The position numbers and the translations under genes were made by a program. From contig JAERST010000001.1 of NCBI GenBank assembly GCA_016845365.1, positions 79,666 to 143,665 of the forward strand: a stretch of DNA of 64,000 nucleotides, in the 5' to 3' direction. Origin of the DNA: Methanobacteriota archaeon. Lineage in GTDB: Archaea; Thermoplasmatota; Poseidoniia; Poseidoniales; Thalassarchaeaceae. The notes under the pieces were generated by a model that saw only the letters and a list, made by a program, of their open reading frames with translations, did not search any database and had not been told where the DNA came from. Below are positions 6,979 to 36,260 of this stretch, in pieces (the stretch's first letter is position 1; each line of letters starts with the position of its first letter).

Positions 6979-9900
6979 TTACATGTTTCTTCTGAATTTG
7001 CCACCGGTTTCGAATAGTGCTTGAGTCACTTGCCCAACCGAGCAATATTCGACGATATCCATCATTACTTCGAACAGATTTCCACCATCTCTTGCGACCT
7101 GCTTGAGCCGAGCAAGCCCTTCCTCAGCCTTTGCCGCGTGCTCGGCTCGGAATGCCTCATTGCGCTCGATGACCATCATTCGTTCAGCTTCATCCGAGCG
7201 CGTAACATCAACATCGAAAGCATCGGCTTCATCAGCCGATAGGCTCGCAGCATCCGGATTGATGAAGGTGTTAACACCGACGATCGGCAACTCCCCAGAG
7301 TGCTTTCGATGCTCGTAAACCATCGATTCATCCTGAATGCGGTTGCGTTGGTAATTCACTTCCAATGAGCCTAGCACACCGCCGCGTCGATGCATCTCCT
7401 CGAAGATGCGCAGAATTTCCTCCTCGACTTGGTCGGTCAACCAAGTCGAGAGATGCGAGCCTTGCATCGGATTCTCATTGGCGAGCAATCCGTATTCCTT
7501 TGAGAGAATCATCTGGATCGCCATCGAATCGCGCACCGTCTCCTCGGTAGGAGTCCCAAACGCCTCATCGCGCGAATTCGTATGCAATGAGTTGGCATTG
7601 TCAGCCAGCGCGTAGAGAGCCTGTAAAGTCGTCCTGTAATCGTTGAAAGTGAACTCCTGAGCGTGCAGACTTCGCCCACTCGATTGAATGTGATATTTCA
7701 GCTGTTGACCGCGATGCCCAACCCCGTAGATATCCCGCATCGCGATCGCCCAAATCCTGCGCGCGACACGACCAATCACAGCGTATTCAGGGTCCATTCC
7801 ATTGGAGAAAAACCAACTGAAATTGCGCAGGAATTTGTCAGGGTCGAGCCCACGGGCTCGGAACAATTCGACATAAGTCAGGCCGTTGCTCAGCGTCAGC
7901 GCAGCCTGCGTAATCGGGTTCGCACCGGCCTCTGCAATATGGTAGCCCGAGATCGAGACGAAGTAGTGGTTGCGGACGTTGTTTTGGACGTAGAATTCAG
8001 CGACATCACCCATCATTCTGAGGGCCGTGTCGAGGTTGAAAACCAGTGTGTTTTGCCCCATCGATTCCTTGAGTTGGTCTGCCTGAACCGTACCGCGTAC
8101 CGTGCTCAACGCCGTCGCCTTCAACTCCGCCTTCTCCGCATCGTTCGGGGGCCGTCCGTTCTGCTGCTCAAATTGTCGAATCTGCTGGCGGATTGCGACG
8201 TTGAAGAATGCCGCCAGGTGCCACCAATAATTTCCATTGATGGTTTTCGAGGTGGACGTGTTCGGGGCGCACAAGTCGAACCCTTCGAAGAGCAGGTCCA
8301 TCTCGTCTACCGTGCTAATCGATACGCCGGATTCGCAGACTTTTCCGAAGATATCGAGTCGGGTTTGGGGGTCTCTACCGTAGAGGGATGGTGAATCGAA
8401 GGCCGTGCTGAGTCGGTTGAATGGCTGGCCTTCGGAGAGGAAGTGAAATCGCTTGTTGGTGCGCTCGGCGCTGCCTTCTCCAGCGAACATTCTGATTGGG
8501 ATTTCATCCTCGCGCTTGAAGGGGAAGACTCCTGCCGTGAAGGGGAATGCGCCGGGGACATTTTCGGCGCGAATCCACGCCATTTTCTCTCCCCAGTCTT
8601 GGGTGTCGGGGAGTGCCACTCTGGGCATGTCGAGGCCGCTGAGCGTCTCGGTTGTGGTTTCTACCGGGATGTCCTTGCCTCGAACCGTGTAGGATGCCTG
8701 TCCTGAGCGGTAGGCTGCTGCGCGCTCGTCGAACTCTTTGAGCATCTCCCAGGCACTTGCCGGGACTCGCTTGCGGACTTCTTCGGCTTCTGCTGTGAGG
8801 TCTGCTGCCGAGGTGAGTCGGTTGGACTTGCGCATTTGCTGGGCTGCGGCTTCGAGTTGCTGGACGAGGCGCACGTTGCGGGATGCTTCTTGCGTGCGCG
8901 CGTGGTAATCTCTTACTGACGCTGCAACTTCTGCGAGGTAGCCTTGGCGCTCGGGCGGGATGGGTGCCGAGCGGTGTGGGAGACCGTCGGGGCCGAGTCG
9001 TGCTTCTGCTGCTTCGAATGCTTGGCCGTGTTGTTCGTTTAGCTGGGTTGCGAGCTTTTGCCAGAGTTGGTCGACTCCGGCGTCTGCGAATTGGCTCGCT
9101 ATCGTCGGGATGACTGGCAGGTCCTCGTTCTTGGCGTCCCACATCTCGCGGTTGCGCTTGAATTGCTTGCGGATTTCTGTGAGTGCGTCCTCGGCTCCGG
9201 GGCGGTCGAATTTGTTGAGGACGACGATGTCTGCGAAGTCGAGGGCGGCTAACTTCTCGAGTTGGCTTGGTGCTCCGTATTCCCTTGTCGTGACGTACAT
9301 CGATAGGTCGGCTACCTCGGTTATCGCGTCGTTGCCTTGGCCTATTCCGCTGGTTTCTACGAGGATGAGGTCGAAGCCTACCGCTTGGCAGGCTTCGATT
9401 GCGCGGTCGATGCAATCGGCTATCTCTCGACCGCTTGCTCGGCTTGCGAATGAGCGCATGAATAGGTTATCGTCGGCGAGGCTATTCATGCGGATTCTGT
9501 CGCCGAGCAGGGCCCCACCGGTTCGCTTTCTGGTTGGGTCAGTGGCGAGCAGTGCTACCTTTGCTCCTGGATTGTCGCGCTGGATTCTGAGCATTAGCTC
9601 GTCAGTGAGGCTGGATTTTCCTGCGCCTCCGGTGCCGGTTAGGCCGACGACTGGGCTGGCTTTGCTTTGCTCGACTGAGCGCACTCGCTTGAGGACGGTT
9701 CGGAAATGCTCGTCGTCGGCATTTTCGGCAAGGGTCAGCAACTTTGCAACCGCTCCGTGTTGGTCGGCTGAAACTGGTCCTGAAAGTGAATTGAAGCGAG
9801 CGGAGGCGAGCAGGTCTGTTCCGCTCGCTTCGGCGATGGCATCGCCAACCATCCCGGTCAAGCCCATCTCTCGCCCGTCATCGGGCGAGTAGATTCGGGC

Positions 9901-10284
9901 GATTCCATCGTCGCGTAACTTCTTGATTTCCCACGGCAGGATTGTCCCGCCACCGCCTCCGCAAAGGAATACGTGGTCGAATCCTGCCTCATCGAGGAGT
10001 TCCTTGGTGTGGGTGAACATCTCGACCGCGCCGCCTTGGTAGGATGTGATTGCAATCGCATGAGCATCCTCCTGAATCGCTGCCCGCGCCACCTCATCGG
10101 CGCCGCGGTCGTGGCCGAGGTGGATGACTTCGCAACCCATCGATTGGAAGATTCGCCGGAAGATTCCGATTGCAGCATCATGTCCGTCGAAGATCGCCGC
10201 TGCGGTCACAACCCGCAGCGGCGTGCTCGGCTCAGCCTCCGCCTTCTCTGAAGGCGAATCTGGGGCCTGAGCCTCGCTCACCAT
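6979..10284 (-). CDS. icmF: IcmF-type fused acyl-CoA mutase (B12-binding domain - MeaB-like GTPase - mutase TIM-barrel domain)
   Basis: 1101 aa. N-terminal B12 domain (AAIFDGHDAAIGIF...ITSYQGG), P-loop GLTGTGGAGKSSL plus NKFD of the MeaB/ArgK GTPase, and a C-terminal methylmalonyl-CoA-mutase-like catalytic domain. This domain order is diagnostic of IcmF rather than a split MCM. Confidence 0.8.
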   Translation of the reverse strand: MVSEAQAPDSPSEKAEAEPSTPLRVVTAAAIFDGHDAAIGIFRRIFQSMGCEVIHLGHDRGADEVARAAIQEDAHAIAITSYQGGAVEMFTHTKELLDEAGFDHVFLCGGGGGTILPWEIKKLRDDGIARIYSPDDGREMGLTGMVGDAIAEASGTDLLASARFNSLSGPVSADQHGAVAKLLTLAENADDEHFRTVLKRVRSVEQSKASPVVGLTGTGGAGKSSLTDELMLRIQRDNPGAKVALLATDPTRKRTGGALLGDRIRMNSLADDNLFMRSFASRASGREIADCIDRAIEACQAVGFDLILVETSGIGQGNDAITEVADLSMYVTTREYGAPSQLEKLAALDFADIVVLNKFDRPGAEDALTEIRKQFKRNREMWDAKNEDLPVIPTIASQFADAGVDQLWQKLATQLNEQHGQAFEAAEARLGPDGLPHRSAPIPPERQGYLAEVAASVRDYHARTQEASRNVRLVQQLEAAAQQMRKSNRLTSAADLTAEAEEVRKRVPASAWEMLKEFDERAAAYRSGQASYTVRGKDIPVETTTETLSGLDMPRVALPDTQDWGEKMAWIRAENVPGAFPFTAGVFPFKREDEIPIRMFAGEGSAERTNKRFHFLSEGQPFNRLSTAFDSPSLYGRDPQTRLDIFGKVCESGVSISTVDEMDLLFEGFDLCAPNTSTSKTINGNYWWHLAAFFNVAIRQQIRQFEQQNGRPPNDAEKAELKATALSTVRGTVQADQLKESMGQNTLVFNLDTALRMMGDVAEFYVQNNVRNHYFVSISGYHIAEAGANPITQAALTLSNGLTYVELFRARGLDPDKFLRNFSWFFSNGMDPEYAVIGRVARRIWAIAMRDIYGVGHRGQQLKYHIQSSGRSLHAQEFTFNDYRTTLQALYALADNANSLHTNSRDEAFGTPTEETVRDSMAIQMILSKEYGLLANENPMQGSHLSTWLTDQVEEEILRIFEEMHRRGGVLGSLEVNYQRNRIQDESMVYEHRKHSGELPIVGVNTFINPDAASLSADEADAFDVDVTRSDEAERMMVIERNEAFRAEHAAKAEEGLARLKQVARDGGNLFEVMMDIVEYCSVGQVTQALFETGGKFRRNM

Positions 10285-10328: not shown

Positions 10329-10961
10329 TCAATCGGTCCGTAGGACCGATTCCTCGTCGTATTTCTCGAGGAATGCGTCTGAAAGCAAATTTAGCCGATT
10401 CTCCAAAGCAGCATCTTTGTAACCCGATTCAGCCAACACATCCTCGGCATCCTTAATCTCTCGAAGATGATCCATTTGACTCCCCACTTTTTGGACGGTT
10501 TCAGACCAGCGGCCGTATAGTTCGGTATTCTCGTAGACCGTGGCGAAGAAAGCATCGAGAGTTTTTTTCTCTGCCAATTCAGAACTTGTTTTTACTTCAA
10601 AACAATTCAATTCTTCATTAATTCCGATATGAGAACCAAAAGTCCCAATCGCGTTCCGATCATTTAGCCGTTCCAAGGCTTGAGTCATCAATGGAGTATC
10701 CTCGTTCTCGATAGTCCACCGGGATCTCGAACTTACTAGAAAATCAGATTTATCATGAAATTTAACTTCCATTTCCCATTTTTCAAAATCATTTTCAAAG
10801 GGCGTAATAAACGCTTGATTTCTATTATCTACAAGAATATCCCAATTTCTTTTTCGTAATTGAGTAGCCAATGATTTGAACCCCCGAATCTCCCCAGATG
10901 CACCTGATTGAACCATTGTACCGCTAAGAAATTCAAACTCCTCTCTTTTGGGTCTTTCCAA
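10329..10961 (-). CDS. hypothetical protein (A+T-rich gene at the island edge)
   Basis: 210-aa ORF with no motif recognised. Composition clearly differs from the neighbouring icmF. Confidence 0.5.
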   Translation of the reverse strand: MERPKREEFEFLSGTMVQSGASGEIRGFKSLATQLRKRNWDILVDNRNQAFITPFENDFEKWEMEVKFHDKSDFLVSSRSRWTIENEDTPLMTQALERLNDRNAIGTFGSHIGINEELNCFEVKTSSELAEKKTLDAFFATVYENTELYGRWSETVQKVGSQMDHLREIKDAEDVLAESGYKDAALENRLNLLSDAFLEKYDEESVLRTD

Positions 10962-11200: not shown

Positions 11201-11419
11201 TTGGTGAGCGAAGTCACAACAGACGTGATGATCGCCGACCGTACGGGCCATACCACCCTCCAACTCACCCAGCAGGAGACCCTTGACAGGGTCGCTGGGA
11301 TGGAGGGTGCCTGGGTCTTCGCAGGAGACAGGATGGTGCAGCCAGCTGAGCTGGCGAACACCGACTGGGGTACTGTGGGGACTGTCAGGGTGGTGCCTGG
11401 ACTAGTCGGTGGTAACTGA
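11201..11419 (+). CDS. ubiquitin-like / ThiS-MoaD-like beta-grasp protein ending ...VVPGLVGG-N
   Basis: 72 aa (TTG 11201 or GTG 11204 start). AGGAGG at 11191-11196. The C-terminal diglycine is followed by a single Asn and then the stop codon. An E1::JAB gene lies 110 nt downstream. Confidence 0.6.
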   Translation: MVSEVTTDVMIADRTGHTTLQLTQQETLDRVAGMEGAWVFAGDRMVQPAELANTDWGTVGTVRVVPGLVGGN

Positions 11420-11529: not shown

Positions 11530-12738
11530 ATGAGGTCATATGAACAGAATGCTTGGACAAAGGGTGAGATTGTAATTACGGTAATTGGAGCCGGTGGAAT
11601 TGGCTCAAATCTTGTGCCGCACCTCGCGCGCGCGTTGCGTTGTGGTGAGTTGATCGGCAAGGTCGGTCCGGTGAGATTGCGAGTTATCGATGGTGATTAT
11701 GTTGAGGAACGCAATCTTCAGCATCAGAATTTCACATCGGAAAATGTCGATTCTTACAAGACCGAATCAATCGTCAGACCTCTTTGGAATTGTCATCATA
11801 CCTTATTCACAATCGAATCGATTCCCGAAAATGTTCGAACTCCAACTTTCATCGCGACTTCTGACCTCGTCCTCGTCGCTGTAGATTCGATGGAAGTTCG
11901 TCGTCTGGTTCATCGGTACGCAGACACTTGGTTGGACTTGCGCTGCCAAGGCGATGGTTACATCGCTCTTGACCACAGAGTTGACCCTGTAATCGTCTCA
12001 AAGCTCACGCCGCTGAATGGGGAGTCGACCTCTTGCCAATTGCCAGGGGCTCTCAAGTCTGGCAACATTCAGTTCGGCCATCTTCTCGCGGGGGCTCATG
12101 GTGCGCAGTGGGTACTGCAGTATCTCCGCTACTTCGCTGGTGAGGTGAACGCTCAACCTCCTGCGCCGCAGACTGCGAACATTACCTTCGGAACGCTCGG
12201 TCGCTTCGAACTACACTCTCCAAACCTCGAACCTCGCACAGACGTTGAACCGCAGATTCACAGCGATGATTTGTTGGAGATATTTGTCGAATCGGAGGAG
12301 CATGATTCCGTACCGATTCGGGAGACTCTTACGGCTCACGCAGTGAGCCGCGATTACCAGAGTCTGTGGAACCTCGCGGACCGTCTGGGCCGCGAGGTCA
12401 GCATCCTCTTCGATGCTGACGACAAGGTGTGGGTTGATGTTGGTACAGCCGGACAAGTCCGGCTAGCTCCTCCAGAGGGTGCGCGGATTCCGTTCAAGTT
12501 GTGGATTCACACGCATCCGCGCGATGCATATTGGAGCGCCACAGACCAAGATTCATTGCTCAGATTCAGCGGAATCCTGCAAGAGGCTCTGGTCCTCGGC
12601 CATGACCATCTGAAGAGGGCGGTCCATCTTGCCGAGCCGACAGATGAGTGCATCGAGAAAGGCTCGGCACTCGAATTCTGGACTGACGAGGAAATCACAC
12701 TCTACAGTGAGATGGAGGTAGTCGCAGATGGATCCTGA
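11530..12738 (+). CDS. E1-like (ThiF/MoeB/UBA adenylation domain) fused to a C-terminal JAB/MPN+ (JAMM) metallopeptidase
   Basis: N-half has GAGGIGS (GxGxxG), IDGDYVEERNLQHQ (DxDxV...NLxxQ) and VAVDS. C-half has E289 (GREVSILF) and H327-T-H329-PRDAYW-S336-AT-D339 (nt 12508-12546). No CxxC zinc pairs of the MoeB/UbaA type. Confidence 0.75.
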   Translation: MRSYEQNAWTKGEIVITVIGAGGIGSNLVPHLARALRCGELIGKVGPVRLRVIDGDYVEERNLQHQNFTSENVDSYKTESIVRPLWNCHHTLFTIESIPENVRTPTFIATSDLVLVAVDSMEVRRLVHRYADTWLDLRCQGDGYIALDHRVDPVIVSKLTPLNGESTSCQLPGALKSGNIQFGHLLAGAHGAQWVLQYLRYFAGEVNAQPPAPQTANITFGTLGRFELHSPNLEPRTDVEPQIHSDDLLEIFVESEEHDSVPIRETLTAHAVSRDYQSLWNLADRLGREVSILFDADDKVWVDVGTAGQVRLAPPEGARIPFKLWIHTHPRDAYWSATDQDSLLRFSGILQEALVLGHDHLKRAVHLAEPTDECIEKGSALEFWTDEEITLYSEMEVVADGS

Positions 12739-12967
12739 GATCTCCGCAGCCATGCTCCGAGTCCAGCGAGCGCTGGACGCTCGAGAGCCGAATCAAGTCG
12801 GCTTGAAAATTCCAGCTTTGGTCAATGCGATCATCGATGAGGAAGCAGATGAGGAACTCATCGATCTTGTCCGGTCAGCCATGAGTTCAAAAGAGACGCC
12901 TGTCACTATGCCTGAGGTGATTGAAGGGGTCCTTGGTCTGGTCCGCTGGCGTCAGTCCGCGGCCTAA
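12728..12967 (+). CDS. small acidic helical protein, overlaps the E1::JAB stop by 11 nt
   Basis: 79 aa with no Cys. The overlap suggests translational coupling. A hairpin follows at 12985-13000. Confidence 0.45.
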   Translation: MDPEISAAMLRVQRALDAREPNQVGLKIPALVNAIIDEEADEELIDLVRSAMSSKETPVTMPEVIEGVLGLVRWRQSAA

Positions 12968-13000: not shown

Positions 13001-13172
13001 GAAAACCACCTGATGTGATGGGCAATACTGCCTACCATTATAGGCTAGTAGGGGGCCGGTGATAATCCGGCTCGGGGCAGGAACCTCTCGGAGCAGTTAT
13101 TTTTACCCCAATAATAAGACAAATCCGATATTTCCTGCAATTAGCCAACAAAAGAAATTAGAGGTCATTTAC

Positions 13173-14153
13173 ATGCCAAATTGCTATATTTGTAACAGTA
13201 TTGAAGTAAGAATCGAGAATGATTTGTTCATTTGTTCAGCCTGTGGGTTTGAACAGAATTTGAACTCAACAGAATCTGACTGGGAAAGCGGTCAACGAAT
13301 ACCGAACATCAATCAGTTGACCGCGGTAAATCCCAATCAACTTGGGGGGGCGAGAATCGATGCCAACCACCCCGACGCTCGGCGTAATAGAGTTCTTCGC
13401 CGCCTAATCAGAGCAGAACGAATTGCAGGCGATGGTCAATCCAAACGATTCCTCTCCGAGATACTCGATGAGGTGACTAAACTCGACCTTTCAATCGAGA
13501 TTAAGCAGCGAATCGTCAGGATGTTGCACGAGATAATCAGGTTGCATGGGAAAGGTCTGGGTTGGATTCGTCACCGACCACAGGGAGTGATGACCAAGGA
13601 GGAGTACGAATTGATGACGCGACGTGCATTCATATTGATAGCAATGCAGAAGCTAAACGAAATCGAAGTACCAATAAACGTGCTTCAATACGAGCAAGAA
13701 TGGCAGGTCGAGCCAATCTTCTTCAATCGTGTGAAGAAGGTTCTGGATAAGGCATTGAAATTGGCCGGGAACGGTGGCGCGGCACCCGAAAAGTGTGGAA
13801 TTCGCGAAGCCAATGAGAGGCGACGTCAACAACTCTTGAATCATTTGAACTCCTTGAGAGACTTGGTAGCAAAGCATCTCGGCCATTCGACCGCCAGCAG
13901 GGTTTACACTCAGTCCATTTCCTTACTCAAACAACTCGGCGAACCGATGGATGGTTCTGATTTTGAGAACCTCGGCGAGACTTGCAATATGAAGCCGACC
14001 AAGCTTATTCCCCAAGTCATTGATGCAGCAATGTACATCCTCAACATTCCTTCCCATGACATTCGTCAGGTACGCCGCGAACTCAATCTCCCGAACCGTC
14101 GAGTTCCAGATGCGATGAAGTGGCTGACATCTGCCGATGTAGAAGAAGAGTGA
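13173..14153 (+). CDS. divergent TFB/TFIIB-like protein (N-terminal zinc ribbon plus helical, cyclin-like body)
   Basis: Start placed at MPNCYICNS...FICSACGF (CxxC-x13-CxxC ribbon). At 326 aa it matches TFB length. Helical repeats such as LDLSIEIKQRIVRMLHEIIRLHGKG...AFILIAMQKLNEIEVPINVL resemble TFB cyclin-fold segments. Confidence 0.45.
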   Translation: MPNCYICNSIEVRIENDLFICSACGFEQNLNSTESDWESGQRIPNINQLTAVNPNQLGGARIDANHPDARRNRVLRRLIRAERIAGDGQSKRFLSEILDEVTKLDLSIEIKQRIVRMLHEIIRLHGKGLGWIRHRPQGVMTKEEYELMTRRAFILIAMQKLNEIEVPINVLQYEQEWQVEPIFFNRVKKVLDKALKLAGNGGAAPEKCGIREANERRRQQLLNHLNSLRDLVAKHLGHSTASRVYTQSISLLKQLGEPMDGSDFENLGETCNMKPTKLIPQVIDAAMYILNIPSHDIRQVRRELNLPNRRVPDAMKWLTSADVEEE

Positions 14154-14217: not shown

Positions 14218-16125
14218 TCATTCGTCTAGAGGCCGGTTTAGGATCTCACCCAATTGTCCAACTCCTGGGTCCATGCGCTCAAAGTTGGCCCAAGCAGGAC
14301 CGGGCATCAGGCGCATCCTCTGTCTGATGGTAATCAGCGGTTCGAGTAACTCGCCGAATTGATGTACAAATTCACCTAAATCTCTCTGCGGGAATCTAAC
14401 TCGAGTGAACATGTCTCTCCTAGGTCGGCGTACGCCGTGTTCATTGACGTCCTCCACTCTCTCCCAACCAGCTGCTCGAAGCATAGTTTCACTGAGTTCA
14501 TGCTCCAATACGTTTCTAATCCTCAAGGTTGTGTCACATTCGGCAAATTCGATTCGGTACATATCATCACCCCTGCCATCAGCGAAAGCTAGTCTTGAGT
14601 TGAGAGGAAGGCGCAGAAGAACACTCCAAAATCGTGGGAAAATCACTGTAGCTCGAACTGCCATTCGTTCTGCCTGATTACGAGCTCGTATCTCTTCATC
14701 CAGCTCTTGGTCGTCCACTCTCGCTCGGTCCCGGTCTCTCCTCGCTCTATTCTCCACACGTTGGAAATTTTCATTCATAATCTGTCGAAGAACAGGCTGC
14801 AGAGTATCGATGTGAGCAGCGGAGCCGATATCATCGAGAAGACTGAGGATGACCGTACCAATCGCATCACCGAGGACTAAGGCTCGTAATTCATCAGTCT
14901 CTACTACGCAGAGGTGTTCTCGTGGGTGACTCGTTCGAGCGGAATGGCCATTGATTTCCCGTGGGCGAACTCTGAACCTACTCCCATGCGGGCCAGGACC
15001 TGGTGTAACGCTCCAGAGAACACCGGAAATGCCGCGTACCATGAATTGATTATTCTCTGAGTCAATTCGTACTTTCTCATTGTCGGTAATCGCACGAAGG
15101 AATTCGACGCCTCTCCGGTTCTCCTCATCCAAATGTAAGTCTGGAGGCGTCAGGAGACCATACTGCAAACATCGTAGGAATTGATGTTCGGGATGTGCGA
15201 CCGGTGAGAGTGCCCAGTTTAGTATCCTGGCGATCAGAATTGGGTCTGCAGGAAGTCTGCGAGTCATCCATTTCATTCCATTGCGCATTTTCAGCAATAA
15301 GCGTCCCTTCTTGATTGAGAAGCTGAGGCAAACAAGAGGCCTCCTTTCACCATAATTAGCATGTGAAATTGTCCCATCCCATCGTTTGAACCACTCGAGA
15401 TTCTCAATAAGGGAGCGGGGAATGCCGATTTCCATTCCTCGATTCATGCGGTTTAGGTAGGCTCTGTTAGGTTCTGTTCCCTCATCGAAGCGTGAAGGTT
15501 TGAGATAGAAGGTAACCGGATGATAAGAAATCTCTCTACCGTATTCCCCCTGCCTTCCTCTGAATTGTCGCAAACGCATCTGATTCGGAGAAAAACGCGA
15601 GGAAGCCACATTCATTGATACTAACAACGCCTTCCAATTGATTTGGTCAGCATCGTGGCGCTCTAGCATTTTCTCAAGTGTTAGGTATGGGACTGAGAGT
15701 GGAACTCCATCGAGCCAAAATTGATCATCGGCCCAAGTCAAGTAACTTCCATCTGGAAGAATGCCGCCACGTTGTAATCTCCTTCGCGCCGAAAAATCAT
15801 CCGAGAATATCCGTCCGCGCTCGATTTCAGCCTTCATCTCATCATCGAGCGCCCAAGGTTGAGGTGGATCGATTATCCAATGAGAGTCAGCAAGCTTCTG
15901 CGGATTGAGAACCCACCAGATATCGGTGCCTTCAGAGGAGTCGAGGGCAGACCAGAATTCACCCCTGTGGCCGCGCTCAAGTCGGATGCTAGCCGCGGCC
16001 TCATCCATCGAATTTTCATCGGGCATCAATTCCATCGAGCGCCCATGAAGGGCGGGAATGAGGATATGGCAAATATCACAGAAGGTATCTCCCGAGTCTA
16101 CTCCACAGCCTTTACACGAACTCAT
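14218..16125 (-). CDS. large Zn-knuckle protein, paralog A (635 aa), with a UBC-like H-P...C segment
   Basis: N-terminal CKGC-x9-CDIC-H. Internal TSHPREHLCVVETDELRALVLGDAIGTVILSLLDD (Cys406 codon at 14908-14910). Start overlaps the stop of the upstream paralog (ATGA at 16122-16125). Confidence 0.65.
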   Translation of the reverse strand: MSSCKGCGVDSGDTFCDICHILIPALHGRSMELMPDENSMDEAAASIRLERGHRGEFWSALDSSEGTDIWWVLNPQKLADSHWIIDPPQPWALDDEMKAEIERGRIFSDDFSARRRLQRGGILPDGSYLTWADDQFWLDGVPLSVPYLTLEKMLERHDADQINWKALLVSMNVASSRFSPNQMRLRQFRGRQGEYGREISYHPVTFYLKPSRFDEGTEPNRAYLNRMNRGMEIGIPRSLIENLEWFKRWDGTISHANYGERRPLVCLSFSIKKGRLLLKMRNGMKWMTRRLPADPILIARILNWALSPVAHPEHQFLRCLQYGLLTPPDLHLDEENRRGVEFLRAITDNEKVRIDSENNQFMVRGISGVLWSVTPGPGPHGSRFRVRPREINGHSARTSHPREHLCVVETDELRALVLGDAIGTVILSLLDDIGSAAHIDTLQPVLRQIMNENFQRVENRARRDRDRARVDDQELDEEIRARNQAERMAVRATVIFPRFWSVLLRLPLNSRLAFADGRGDDMYRIEFAECDTTLRIRNVLEHELSETMLRAAGWERVEDVNEHGVRRPRRDMFTRVRFPQRDLGEFVHQFGELLEPLITIRQRMRLMPGPAWANFERMDPGVGQLGEILNRPLDE

Positions 16126-17849
16126 CTTGCTTCCTCCAAGGCTTGGAGGTCGCCTCCGAATCTCTCGAATAATCGCTCGATTGCCTGCCGGAGATGTTCT
16201 TCGCTTTCATCCAATTCGCGTAGGTTTTCTTCCAACACATTTCGAGTAATTTCACGATTGTGTTCAACCACCTCTTCTCTCTCAAAATCGATATTATCCC
16301 AATCATAATCTTCCTCGTAATACTCATCTTCTTCGATCTCATCTTCATCCATCAAGAGCTCTTCATCGTCGGGGACTCCGTGGACATAATCGTCGACCAA
16401 ATGGTCCCACCAACACGGCGCTTCGACCCTCCTCTTCTGCCACCCCTTGTGCTTGCTCAGCAAATCCAGGAGGTGATGGAGAGTGATGATTCCCGTCTGA
16501 CTCTCGAGGTCGTTATGCAATGCCAAGAGATAGCTGGCGGCGACATCGCCGGTGGGGATGTCGTGTCCCGCTTGACTATCGATACAGATTTGCACGCCAC
16601 GTTCTATAGCATCTTCAAACATCGATTCGTGGGGAATCGCGTTGACGAGGAATTTCTTCGGGTCTGCTGTGGCAAGCAGAACATAGTGCAGACCGCTAGC
16701 CCCTTTGACTCGCAATCCGAGTTTGGTAGAGTCGACGCGCACTGGTTCCATCGAAGAGTGTTCACCGAGAGTCTCAACCGTCTTCTTGAGGAAGAGAACG
16801 GAATTCCGCTGACTCGAGGTTGGGACCCAGAATTCATCTTCTGAGTTCCAGCACCAAAACAAGTCATTCAACTTCTCAGAATGTTCTGTTCCTGGGGGCT
16901 CGAAGGTCCAAGCCATCAGCAAGCGCCAAACTCGAGGTTCGACCATCACAGGAATCGGGGTAGGCTTACCATCGACGAGCGCAAGTAGGCAAAAGCGCTC
17001 GTTGACAACGACGAGTTTGGGAGTGATGAAATGCCCAAGCAGGGTCACGATGGCGGCTTGACGGTCTTCTAGAATCTCCAGCCATGTTTCAGCAGCTCTG
17101 CCGCCTTGTTCCTCGATCAATTCGATATTTCCGTCAATCAATTCTCTGAGTGGTGCATCCCCACCGAGTTTATCTCTCTCGAGCAAGGTCAAAAATCGTA
17201 GGAATGGATGCATCAAATGTCTGACAGAGAAGTTGTCAGAGATTCCCATCATATGAGGCTCGACACCATGCCATGCATTGTGTCGGTACCACTCAGCCCA
17301 ATTGTCGATTGTCTCTGGATGGCAATCACGTAGGCAGCAAGACATCGCGAAGAGGAAATGTTTCCAATTTACAACCGACCCAACCCGAGCGGGATTTGAC
17401 ATCCATAGAGCGATGTCTCGCATCGGTAGTGGGCCCGGGAGTGTGATATCGTCAATCGAGATTTTGGAGTCGGCGCCAACTTTGAGAATGCTTCCTCCCG
17501 GCAGCGGCAGTCCGCCGTTACTGGTAATTCCGTGAAGGTTGAGAATCCGTCCGTACTGCCGCCACTGCTCAGCCGCTGCCTCGCTGAAATAAGGCGGTTG
17601 ACCACGCCGAGAGCGGAGAGCGCGAGGTAATTCGGAATCGATGGTCTCCGCCTCGGCGAGCATCATCAATCTCTGTTCATGAGTCAGCCCGCGGCCGGGT
17701 CTGAGAATCGCTTTCATTTCGGCTAAGTCGCCGGTCTGAGGGATATTTTGTTGGGACAATCCAGTGATTCCACGGGCAGTTAGGGAGCAGACCGCGCAGT
17801 CGTGAATGAAGTTAGAAGTAGCATGTCCACACCAGCAGAGATTAGGCAT
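16122..17849 (-). CDS. large Zn-knuckle protein, paralog B (575 aa), with a UBC-like segment and a hyper-acidic C-terminal region
   Basis: N-terminal CWC-x10-CAVC. Internal FLVNAIPHESMFEDAIERGVQICIDSQ...VAASYLLALHNDL (Cys422 codon at 16584-16586). Acidic DDEELLMDEDEIEEDEYYEEDYDWDNIDFEREE. Collinear similarity to the 635-aa protein. Confidence 0.65.
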   Translation of the reverse strand: MPNLCWCGHATSNFIHDCAVCSLTARGITGLSQQNIPQTGDLAEMKAILRPGRGLTHEQRLMMLAEAETIDSELPRALRSRRGQPPYFSEAAAEQWRQYGRILNLHGITSNGGLPLPGGSILKVGADSKISIDDITLPGPLPMRDIALWMSNPARVGSVVNWKHFLFAMSCCLRDCHPETIDNWAEWYRHNAWHGVEPHMMGISDNFSVRHLMHPFLRFLTLLERDKLGGDAPLRELIDGNIELIEEQGGRAAETWLEILEDRQAAIVTLLGHFITPKLVVVNERFCLLALVDGKPTPIPVMVEPRVWRLLMAWTFEPPGTEHSEKLNDLFWCWNSEDEFWVPTSSQRNSVLFLKKTVETLGEHSSMEPVRVDSTKLGLRVKGASGLHYVLLATADPKKFLVNAIPHESMFEDAIERGVQICIDSQAGHDIPTGDVAASYLLALHNDLESQTGIITLHHLLDLLSKHKGWQKRRVEAPCWWDHLVDDYVHGVPDDEELLMDEDEIEEDEYYEEDYDWDNIDFEREEVVEHNREITRNVLEENLRELDESEEHLRQAIERLFERFGGDLQALEEAR

Positions 17850-17975: not shown

Positions 17976-18440
17976 ATGGCCGATCCGACTGAGGCACACA
18001 TCTGCCCGCGCGATGGCTCCCCCCTCGTGCCTCCAGCAGAGTCGGATCGCTCGGCTTACATCCGCCACGGAATCCACCACTGCGACACGTGCGCGGGCAT
18101 GCTTCTCAATGCCGAGGCCGCCGAGGACGCCATCTGTGCAACCAAGCTCGAAGAGATGCACGAAGGCTTCACTGAAGAGGGAACGCCAGTCGACATCGAT
18201 TGCCCATTCTGCGATGCGCAGATGCGAGTCCGCAATTTTGCTTTCCAGCGCATCGATGGCAGCCTCACCGAGCCGATTGAAATCGACGGCTGCCCAAATT
18301 GCACATCGTTTTGGTTAGACGCGGGCGAACTCCACAGATTGTCACCGCCCGCGAACGGCGATCGCACAGCTCGCGTCGAGGCCAACGCGCTCGCCGTCGT
18401 CCTCGAAATTCTCTTCCAATTGCCAATCGTCCTACTCTGA
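17976..18440 (+). CDS. double zinc-ribbon protein (zf-TFIIB / PF13453-like)
   Basis: CPRDGSPL...HHCDTCAGMLL and CPFCDAQM...CPNCTSFWLDAGELHRL; the C..C-WLD-GEL pattern is typical of this family. Divergent from the giant-paralog operon. Confidence 0.6.
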   Translation: MADPTEAHICPRDGSPLVPPAESDRSAYIRHGIHHCDTCAGMLLNAEAAEDAICATKLEEMHEGFTEEGTPVDIDCPFCDAQMRVRNFAFQRIDGSLTEPIEIDGCPNCTSFWLDAGELHRLSPPANGDRTARVEANALAVVLEILFQLPIVLL

Positions 18441-36111: not shown

Positions 36112-36260
36112 GCCGGGGTGGCGTAGTTGGTAGCGCGTCGGACTCATAGGGTACAGTTGACGGGATTTTTCCTGTCGACGCGATCGATGAGCGCACAAGC
36201 CTAGCCGAGAATGTCTGAGACATCCGAAGGTCGCGGGTTCGAGTCCCGCTCCCGGCACCA
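36112..36260 (+). tRNA. tRNA with CAT anticodon (elongator Met or Ile2) carrying a 73-nt intron at 37/38; CCA encoded
   Basis: Manual fold: acceptor GCCGGGG/TCCCGGC, D-arm GCGT-AGTTGGTA-GCGC, anticodon stem TCGGA/TCCGA, loop CTCATA|intron 36149-36221|A, T-arm GCGGG-TTCGAGT-CCCGC, then ACCA. G1:C72 and a non-GGG anticodon stem argue against an initiator. Confidence 0.85.

Follow-up and report, generated by a model that had tools for sequence, protein, structure and literature searches.

The window analysed in this study is a stretch of 64,000 nucleotides (nt) from contig JAERST010000001.1 (GenBank assembly GCA_016845365.1, positions 79,666 to 143,665 of the forward strand) of an archaeon of the family Thalassarchaeaceae, order Poseidoniales. 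An ATG-to-stop open reading frame (ORF) at positions 11530..12738 of the forward strand encodes a fusion protein of 402 amino acids (aa), E1-JAMM, in which an E1-like adenylation domain (residues ~1–232, 11530..12225) is followed by a divergent JAMM/Prok-JAB domain with an N-terminal three-helix extension (residues ~245–402, 12262..12738). On the same strand, 110 nt upstream, a gene at 11201..11419 encodes a putative ubiquitin-like protein (Ubl) precursor of 72 aa ending in …VRVVPGLVGG-N. The genes are arranged in the order IcmF (−), p210 (−), Ubl (+), E1-JAB (+), p79 (+), p364 (+), p635 (−), p575 (−), Zn-ribbon protein (+) and LysE (−). Both the Ubl gene and the conservation of this cluster were overlooked in an initial annotation made from the sequence of the window. 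The ORF is probably the core enzyme of a Ubl system specific to Candidatus Poseidoniales, in which the JAMM domain would trim the Ubl, the E1 domain would activate it and C169 would hold it as a thioester.

The E1-JAMM Fusion Protein

A search over 5.8 billion proteins gave 216 relatives of E1-JAMM; nearly all of the 120 that were listed are ~400 aa long, with a query coverage of 85–100%. Residue invariance was assessed in an alignment of 34 E1-JAMM homologues with identity down to 42%, and the key E1 and JAMM residues were found to be kept in all complete family members, whether fused or split, from 53 related loci. The claim of the initial annotation that an E1 adenylation domain is fused in cis to an apparently active JAMM peptidase was borne out by the ThiF match and the invariant JAMM ligands described below, the activity being judged from the sequence. 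The residue positions that it gave (GESTSC169QLPG, E289, H327, H329, S336 and D339, with H327–D339 at nt 12508–12546) are exact. It had also proposed profile-profile comparison and structural models of both halves as checks, and these placed the N-terminal half among ThiF-type E1s and gave JAMM peptidases as the best, though weak, matches of the C-terminal half.

Residues 16–131 were matched by the Pfam family ThiF (PF00899) with E = 5.6e-14 and 52.3 bits, against a gathering cutoff of 28.1. By hhalign, the E1 half was aligned to E. coli ThiF/MoeB with a probability of 95% and E = 2e-8, the alignment spanning the crossover loop. The full-length AlphaFold2 model (predicted local distance difference test, pLDDT, 84.9; predicted template modelling score, pTM, 0.74) gave UBA5, ThiF, MccB, Cap2 and MoeB as top Foldseek matches over 235–260 columns (E ~1e-10 to 1e-8); E1 matches only were obtained with the whole-protein model, and the JAB half was modelled separately. 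The motifs of the E1 half are G20xG22G23xG25, D54/D56, N62-x-x-H65-Q66, K77, D119, R124, R138 and C139, and the invariant residues are G20, G22, G23, G25, D54, D56, N62, H65, Q66, K77, D119, R124, R138 and C169. ATP-dependent adenylation of a C-terminal Gly by this half is predicted, D54, K77 and D119 being invariant. The motif N..HQ is found in all family E1s at the place where canonical E1s have NLxRQ. The protein begins ~12 residues ahead of the Rossmann β1 strand, so that the Arg-finger helix found at the N-terminus of MoeB/ThiF is missing.

The cysteine C169 (codon 12034..12036) lies in the sequence SCQ, which is present in all family E1s, and was aligned by hhalign to ThiF C184 and MoeB C187. 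Positions of this class hold the catalytic cysteine of minimal E1s, such as C250 of UBA5 (PMC11601596). The initial annotation had left open whether C169 is a catalytic or a crossover-loop cysteine; its alignment and invariance point to the crossover-loop position. The two zinc-binding CxxC pairs of MoeB, described there as missing, are indeed absent throughout the family: no CxxC was found in 52 distinct family E1 sequences, and the first CxxC of ThiF/MoeB falls within a segment deleted in the E1 half according to hhalign.

Comparison with curated families separated the E1 half from the housekeeping enzymes. Scores with the NCBIfam equivalogs were 37–44 bits for ThiF (cutoffs 159–275), 22–31 bits for MoeB (cutoffs 266–449) and 23 bits for UbaA (cutoff 450), and MoeZ was likewise far under its cutoff. 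The best curated family was PRTRC_ThiF (TIGR03736), with 52.9 bits against a cutoff of 144.75. Among solved structures the top sequence-profile match was MccB (E = 5e-8, residues 9–118), and MoeB was outranked by MccB, by the uncharacterised ThiF-type protein 9egc and by the adenylation domains of UBA6, UBA3 and UBA5. With equivalog scores this far below the cutoffs and MoeB this low among solved E1s, the view that the protein is not a housekeeping MoeB, ThiF or UbaA was upheld.

The catalytic glutamate of the JAMM domain would be E289 (codon 12394..12396), which stands at the start of a β-strand in the model, and the metal motif H327-x-H329-x6-S336-x-x-D339 is encoded at 12508..12546. All five ligands (E289, H327, H329, S336 and D339) are invariant in the 34 homologues. 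As the initial annotation had remarked, the spacer between His and Ser is one residue short (HxH-x6-SxxD), and HMM (hidden Markov model) alignments to CsRpn11 and AMSH-LP needed a gap of one residue. Of 27 fused forms, 25 show the x6 spacer; among the split paralogues, 13 show the canonical x7 and others x6.

A profile of the C-terminal half was compared with the sequences in PDB, and all 16 matches were JAMM/MPN+ isopeptidases aligned on HxH…S..D, each with the one-residue gap; the best was archaeal CsRpn11 (6fjv, E = 0.004), and the others were AMSH-LP, Sst2 and STAMBP. The isolated C-terminal domain gave an AlphaFold model with a pLDDT of 90.4, in which a strand ends with HxH and the helix after it opens with SxxD. 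The top Foldseek match of this model in PDB was 8tyx_B (probability 0.87), a bacterial JAB deubiquitinase with bound Ubl, followed by Rpn11 and by cytidine deaminases, which are related in fold. A stand-alone JAB paralogue from locus L039 matched the Pfam family Prok-JAB (PF14464) with E = 2e-5 and 24.8 bits, the cutoff being 25, and two further stand-alone paralogues reached 18 and 13.4 bits. Together these sequence and model data make the C-terminal half a divergent, minimal, fully liganded domain of predicted Prok-JAB-type JAMM fold.

The Putative Ubiquitin-Like Protein

Cluster mapping by family HMMs covered 53 loci and the window, 54 in all. The Ubl is encoded upstream of E1 in nearly all of these loci, and 55 Ubl domain matches were obtained overall. 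Its C-terminus reads PGL[VTIQ]GG followed by zero to two variable residues (F, L, I, E, Q, Y, N, C, LC or LY); other forms have a 17-aa tail after GG or are repeated in tandem as parts of larger proteins. Ubl precursors are typically recognised by a conserved GG before a variable tail that can be dispensed with, and by genes for E1 and JAB alongside. As all of this applies to the present protein, it can be regarded as a processed precursor. The statement of the initial annotation that a writer and an eraser or maturase share one polypeptide stood better for the maturase, which is indicated more directly by the variable tails and the polyproteins, than for the eraser.

In a comparison of the Ubl profile with PDB, ubiquitin accounted for 20 of the 24 matches, in register to the terminal GG. 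By hhalign, the Ubl was related to ubiquitin/NEDD8 with a probability of 22% (E = 9e-4), to MoaD with 6% and to ThiS with 0.6%. The value of E = 2.5e-9 given by the Ubl profile for polyubiquitin was rejected as independent evidence, as it sums nine identical repeats.

In the cluster variant with an upstream JAB, Ubls ending in a single Gly, with neither GG nor tail (…MPRIVFG* and …MPQIQYG*), were found in loci L039 (6192–6401), L043 (6161–6370) and L038 (5773–5991). JAB is kept in L039 and L043 despite this ending, and L038 stops at the contig end. From the clusters with a bare Gly, JAB may have a role in deconjugation.

One locus, L009, has two Ubl genes in tandem (7–222 and 335–550). In L039, a 74-aa protein, probably helical by inspection, is encoded between the JAB and Cys-domain genes (6997–7221); it takes the position of p79 in other variants and has a GG-plus-one terminus of its own (…ESLGGV).

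Conservation and Variants of the Gene Cluster

A scan of species-representative genomes gave 48 loci, nearly all from Candidatus Poseidoniales (Marine Group II) of the families Thalassarchaeaceae and Poseidoniaceae. The gene order is identical on contigs whose E1-JAMM relatives share only ~47% identity. E1 and JAB are fused in 31 of the 54 mapped loci and encoded by separate adjacent genes in 21, while two end at a contig edge; the E1-JAB fusion is thus not a defining trait of the cluster.

The architecture of the window is Ubl / E1-JAB / p79 / p364 / Cys-domain / Cys-domain, where the Cys-domain is the conserved region of p635 and p575 described below. In loci L031, L032, L034 and L035 the order is Ubl / Cys-domain (p278) / E1 / JAB / p79 / p364 / Cys-domain, and in L039 and L043 it is Ubl / JAB / 74-aa protein / Cys-domain / E1; L040 is alike, the contig ending upstream of JAB. 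Polyproteins are encoded in two further types, namely Cys-domain / Ubl-Ubl-E1 / JAB / p79 in L046, L048 and L052 (L050 is of the same Ubl-Ubl-E1 type, its upstream Cys-domain gene being undetected) and Cys-domain / Ubl-Ubl-Cys-domain / E1 / JAB in L029 and L030. PGLVGG is found at each junction of the Ubl polyproteins, so a peptidase would be needed to free the Ubl units. The fusions Ubl-Ubl-E1, Ubl-Ubl-Cys-domain and E1-JAB tie the modules into one pathway. These linking fusions, like the domain assignments, the invariant catalytic residues and the precursor-type ends of the Ubls, are what the analysis shows.

The cluster is flanked by housekeeping genes (Fpg, SDR, IcmF, LysE and acyl-CoA synthetase), and its proteins diverge much faster than those of the flanks. 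Between the window and L001, identity is 80% for IcmF and 58% for LysE, and within the cluster it falls from 47% for E1-JAB and Ubl and 40% for p79 to 31% for p575, 28% for p635, 26% for p364 and 25% for p210. The IcmF-type mutase (1101 aa, 6979..10284, reverse strand), whose orthologues have B12-binding, MeaB and methylmalonyl-CoA mutase domains, is 78–92% identical across loci and is a stable flank marker. The far edge of the cluster is formed by the Zn-ribbon protein (154 aa, 17976..18440, forward strand), which contains several Cys pairs; its orthologues, with 55–90% identity, show weak or faint matches to Pfam Zn_ribbon_TFIIB, and it may be a member of either the cluster or the flank.

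Two variants lie close together in some Poseidoniales genomes, as exemplified by L016 and L043, which are ~20 kb apart on one contig (JAOMRN010000001.1) and represent the fused and split cluster types; these cases and the tandem Ubl genes suggest duplication and diversification within genomes. A viral origin or carriage of the cluster was considered and rejected, no relatives being found on IMG/VR viral contigs. Six loci with bacterial labels (L017, L028, L031, L033, L034 and L038; the labels being Verrucomicrobia, Vicinamibacteraceae, Acidiferrobacter, Phycisphaerae, Acidimicrobiaceae and Gammaproteobacteria) carry a cluster of the Poseidoniales type. As these are short contigs of metagenome-assembled genomes with the same cluster, the labels are probably due to binning contamination rather than to horizontal transfer. 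Elsewhere in the window, an Rfam tRNA match of 146 nt (36112–36257, forward strand, 56.9 bits) that was uncalled by ARAGORN is most likely an intron-containing archaeal tRNA. With the Poseidoniales affiliation of the relatives, it makes assignment of the window to archaea sound.

Cys-Domain Proteins and Other Members of the Cluster

Two paralogous proteins are encoded on the reverse strand downstream of p364, p635 (14218..16125) and p575 (16122..17849), and were related by hhalign with a probability of 99.7% (E = 1e-26). Each has an N-terminal CxxC…CxxC and a Cys-domain, with the invariant cysteine C406 in p635 (codon 14908–14910) and C422 in p575 (codon 16584–16586; QICIDSQAGHDIPTGDVAASYLLALHNDL). 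The Cys-domain, of ~100–110 residues, is common to p635, p575 and the stand-alone p278/p254 family (hhalign probability 84–90%, E ~1e-6; for p635 with p278, 90% and E = 2e-6). In 14 paralogues with a mean identity of 26%, only a Gly, the Cys and two Asp are invariant, within the motif hC[IV][DVH]…GD.h..hhLAL.[ND]D. One to three copies are present per cluster, and the domain occurs in every cluster variant with E1. When 1.84 billion representative proteins were scanned exhaustively by HMM, it turned up in just 162 clusters; an earlier profile search of a big database had given 10 matches, all unannotated.

The position of the Cys-domain behind two Ubl units in L029 and L030 is the same as that of E2 in bacterial BubAB. 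By eye, its pattern ICIDxx…GDxxxSxxLALxxDL recalls ICLDIL…WSPAxxIxxVLLSIxxLL of E2 enzymes. From this genomic association the best guess is that the Cys-domain is an E2-like carrier or a dedicated substrate of the Ubl. The initial annotation had stated that no discrete E2 gene lies beside the fusion; this stands for recognisable E2s of the UBC fold but needs qualification, since the adjacent p635 and p575 carry a hitherto undescribed invariant-Cys domain that is a candidate E2-like carrier.

All p635 and p575 proteins start with CxxC-x(8–14)-CxxC. Around residues 113–133 of p635, a conserved RRLQRGG-x-LPDGS(H/Y)L(S/T)W is present in many orthologues; LQRGG recalls the ubiquitin tail, and a JAB cleavage site and a mere turn are both candidate readings.

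The small acidic protein p79 (12728..12967, forward strand), probably helical by inspection, is translationally coupled to JAB, its start overlapping the E1-JAMM stop by 11 nt. Its family has 35 members across the loci, directly downstream of JAB in fused and split clusters, and it gave no Pfam match and no detectable relatives.

The protein p364 (13059..14153, forward strand; probable true start M39 at 13173) has an N-terminal zinc ribbon of the TFIIB/TFB type with four invariant Cys, and is present in most clusters. Its profile matched Pyrococcus TFB (1pft, E = 9.5e-4) and BRF2 (8ity_V, E = 3e-3) in PDB. Cyclin repeats were not detectable in it, and its length is TFB-like. Judged from its sequence, p364 may be a highly divergent TFB paralogue inside the Ubl cluster, and it is a candidate regulator or target of the cluster.

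The remaining protein, p210 (10329..10961, reverse strand), is encoded divergently from Ubl in 18 loci of the window type, where its identity is 23–54% and that of IcmF stays at 78–92%. It gave no Pfam match and may be an accessory component, restricted to clusters of the window type. Its candidacy as an E2 was rejected, as the L001 orthologue contains no Cys at all.

Proposed Pathway and Alternative Explanations

In the proposed pathway, the JAMM domain would cut off the residue or residues behind the Gly-Gly of the Ubl, and in sister clusters every GG of the polyproteins Ubl-Ubl-E1 and Ubl-Ubl-Cys-domain would be a cleavage site for JAMM/JAB. E1, which shares the chain with JAMM, would then bind the matured Ubl and adenylate its C-terminal Gly using ATP, and attack by Cys169 on the adenylate would yield an E1~Ubl thioester; fusion of maturase and activator would channel the freshly trimmed Ubl straight into the adenylation site. 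Transfer to protein targets might occur directly, as in the E2-independent SAMPylation of archaea, or, as the preferred guess, through the invariant Cys of p635 and p575 acting as E2-like carriers. The JAMM domain would probably also reverse the conjugates. Biologically, the system might provide a regulatory modification specific to the lineage, or it might serve in conflict or defence. More tentatively, it is possible that Poseidoniales hold a complete, hitherto unrecognised ubiquitination-like pathway, in which the Cys-domain is a new non-UBC carrier of Ubl (E2-like or an E2/E3 hybrid) loaded by E1-JAMM, and in which the TFB-like p364 is a target or regulator, tying the Ubl to transcription initiation.

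Several results weigh against this proposal. For the peptidase half, a Pfam scan of the E1-JAMM protein gave no JAB match, so that the JAB assignment needed family-level evidence, and the fold match was weak (E = 0.011 and a TM-score of 0.34 for 8tyx_B, with no match below 1e-3). Trimming is unlikely to be the only role of JAB, because it is kept in L039 and L043, where the Ubl ends in a bare Gly. The Ubl is ubiquitin-like in its C-terminal half, and its β-grasp fold is putative, on weak profile similarity: a single ubiquitin gave E ~0.3–1.5 with the Ubl profile, which is not significant alone. Adenylation cannot be assumed, because an invariant His replaces the ATP-binding Arg and the Arg finger is missing. 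With regard to the Cys-domain, HMM searches of PDB and Pfam gave no match, and its identification as a UBC E2 by homology was dropped after hhalign comparison with eight canonical E2s gave probabilities of 0.2–1.2%; the domain could equally be a substrate. Every catalytic step of E1-JAMM is a prediction from the sequence.

The same chemistry might serve an antiviral or conflict system, as in Bil, Bub, 6A-MBL and the Cap2/Cap3 pair of CBASS (antiphage signalling based on cyclic oligonucleotides), the Ubl being conjugated to viral or host proteins upon infection and the fast-evolving Cys-domain paralogues acting as specificity factors. This explanation, which we consider possible but doubtful, competes over the biological role and not over the mechanism. 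In its repertoire of Ubl, E1, JAB, polyUbl and peptidase-E1 fusion the cluster corresponds to defence operons of bacteria (PMC11601596, PMC1779556), the weak PADLOC and NCBIfam matches are only to Cap2-type E1s, the cluster evolves faster than its flanks (window with L001: IcmF 80%, p364 26%, p635 28%, p210 25%), and genomes have gained additional paralogous clusters and copies of the Cys-domain. However, even between families the cluster keeps to a single place in the chromosome, flanked by the housekeeping genes IcmF and LysE, and it appears to be vertically inherited. Furthermore, its neighbours include no defence genes, hallmarks of mobile elements or effector domains (nucleases, TIR, pore-formers), and copies are lacking on the viral contigs of IMG/VR. 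A sulfur-carrier pathway with no protein conjugation was judged improbable. Here the small protein would be a carrier like ThiS, MoaD or CysO, JAB would unmask its Gly-Gly (compare Mec+ for CysO and QbsD for QbsE), adenylation by E1 would prepare it for conversion to a thiocarboxylate, and an acyl-disulfide or persulfide would arise at C169, as happens in ThiF. Ubl, E1 and JAB are well known from sulfur-transfer operons (PMC1779556), the minimal single-domain E1 is found with no UBC E2, and C169 is positionally homologous to ThiF C184; but no cluster variant contains a rhodanese domain or genes for sulfur metabolism, cofactors or siderophores, and the scores are far under all ThiF, MoeB and UbaA equivalog cutoffs. 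The Ubl is closer to ubiquitin (hhalign probability 22%) than to MoaD (6%) or ThiS (0.6%), and tandem Ubl-Ubl polyproteins, several Cys-domain paralogues and a TFB-like gene suit a metabolic pathway poorly.

Loss of activity in one half, a dead JAB or a dead E1 serving as a Ubl-binding scaffold, would agree with the shortened JAMM spacer, the failure of Pfam to see the JAB half, an ATP site with His instead of Arg, and the lack of an Arg finger. Dead enzymes normally lose their catalytic residues, whereas the JAMM ligands, G-loop, Mg-site Asp, Lys and C169 are invariant in over 50 widely diverged versions, both fused and split; the tailed Ubl precursors and polyproteins require an active peptidase, and the cluster offers no other. 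A pseudo-enzyme is thus considered very improbable. The case for maturation of a peptide natural product, similar to that of a ribosomally synthesised and post-translationally modified peptide (RiPP), is fainter still. The E1-like domain would in that case modify the C-terminus of a precursor, as in MccB and PaaA, with JAB as leader or tail peptidase. Of the solved structures, MccB is the one best matched by the sequence profile (E = 5e-8), and it also ranks high in the structural comparison, but the profile match is limited to the generic Rossmann core (residues 9–118), and the N-terminal peptide-clamp domain of MccB/PaaA is absent from a protein that starts ~12 residues before β1. Moreover, the candidate substrate is a conserved, GG-ending domain of 70 aa, tandem-fused to E1, and not a short hypervariable core peptide, and the cluster contains neither transporter nor immunity genes.

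Relation to Known Systems

The fusion itself is not new, because peptidase-E1 fusions are established in bacteria and an archaeal one has been noted. A study of 2006 predicted bacterial fusions of E1 and JAB in both domain orders (PMC1779556). The initial annotation regarded such fusions as noted only computationally, which is outdated: crystal structures and Ubl-precursor cleavage have been demonstrated for the JAB-E1 fusion BubCD (Ye et al. 2024, PMC11601596), and an E2-E1-JAB protein belongs to the validated antiphage system 6A-MBL (PMC13276650; NCBIfam NF058523). Nor are they restricted to bacterial Ubl operons, as had also been stated, since a Jab-E1 fusion was recorded in the archaeal methanogen RC-I in 2010 (Makarova & Koonin, PMC2948915).

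BubCD is the closest experimentally characterised precedent. Its JAB domain cuts immediately behind the conserved Gly of a Ubl-E2 pre-protein, and the E1 domain then activates the Ubl (PMC11601596). Common to both systems are a JAB/JAMM domain and a minimal ThiF/UBA5-like E1 on one polypeptide, a Ubl precursor or fusion cut (by prediction, in the present cluster) after a conserved Gly, polyUbl forms, and the fusion of Ubl to a downstream carrier (Ubl-E2 in Bub, Ubl-Ubl-Cys-domain in L029 and L030). In contrast to Bub, the domain order is reversed, with E1 N-terminal and JAB C-terminal, and the crossover Cys is invariant, whereas BubCD lacks it and uses oxyester intermediates. Neither a UBC-similar E2 nor the serine protease DUF6527/BubE was found among the neighbours by Pfam and hhalign, and the cluster occupies a fixed chromosomal locus of an archaeal host, while Bub is a sporadic regulator-associated defence operon.

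The cap2_3 protein of 6A-MBL (operon type 6a of Iyer et al. 2006, PMC1779556) shares the E1-then-JAB order and an E1 without rhodanese. However, the present protein has no N-terminal E2 domain as in 6A-MBL, because it begins ~12 residues before β1; a metallo-β-lactamase neighbour is lacking, the Ubl is encoded by a separate gene, and the score with NF058523 was 20.3 bits against a cutoff of 320. CBASS has an E2-E1 fusion (Cap2) and a CD-NTase, and Bil has a tandem IAD-AAD-CYS E1 (BilD) beside a separate JAB and UBC E2; the present E1 has a single adenylation domain, and neither CD-NTase nor UBC was detected; the E1-E2 models of PADLOC gave at most 21 bits, confined to the Rossmann core.

The ThiF of PRTRC systems and operon type 6d (TIGR03736) is the best-scoring curated E1 family, yet far below its cutoff. 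PRTRC systems reside on mobile elements of proteobacteria, together with ParB and the PRTRC proteins A–F, and their E1s, reportedly treated by Iyer et al. in 2006, are said to be associated with Ubl, JAB and E2 and to lack zinc sites and rhodanese. Neither ParB nor PRTRC proteins A–F were found among the neighbours in Pfam and NCBIfam scans.

Among archaea, SAMPylation (SAMP1–3, UbaA and HvJAMM1) and the ubiquitin operon of Caldiarchaeum likewise combine a Ubl with E1 and JAMM; SAMPylation runs without an E2, and CsRpn11 processes the ubiquitin precursor (PMC3082918, PMC6043591). In both, E1 and JAMM are separate genes, unlinked or merely adjacent. UbaA, an E1 of the MoeB type, has the zinc-binding CxxC sites, and the canonical UBC E2 and RING E3 of the Caldiarchaeum operon (Ub, E1, E2, RING, Rpn11) are absent here. 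The Jab-E1 of RC-I, compared by its description, is also archaeal, but was reported with Jab first, in a single genome and as shared with bacteria (PMC2948915).

On the membership tests applied, the cluster belongs to none of Bub, 6A-MBL, Bil, CBASS, PRTRC and UbaA/SAMP, and a literature search found no paper describing a Ubl system of Poseidoniales. What appears to be new is the combination: a chromosomally fixed system, lineage-wide in an archaeal order, with E1 followed by JAB and no E2 domain, a zinc-less E1 that keeps the crossover Cys, ubiquitin-like precursors and polyproteins, no recognisable UBC E2 or E3, a rare invariant-Cys domain and a TFB-like protein.

Bacterial systems of Ubl, E1 and JAB are mostly antiphage modules, and those known from archaea are SAMPylation and the eukaryote-like operons of Caldiarchaeum and Asgard; the present cluster would add a third archaeal type. 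The fused E1-JAMM would provide a compact, testable model of Ubl maturation coupled to activation through a thioester, complementing the oxyester-based BubCD. Candidatus Poseidoniales are among the most abundant planktonic archaea, and Marine Group II matters for the ocean carbon cycle. If the Cys-domain does carry Ubl, E2-like function would have arisen more than once, and a handle would be gained on protein regulation or virus defence in this uncultured group.

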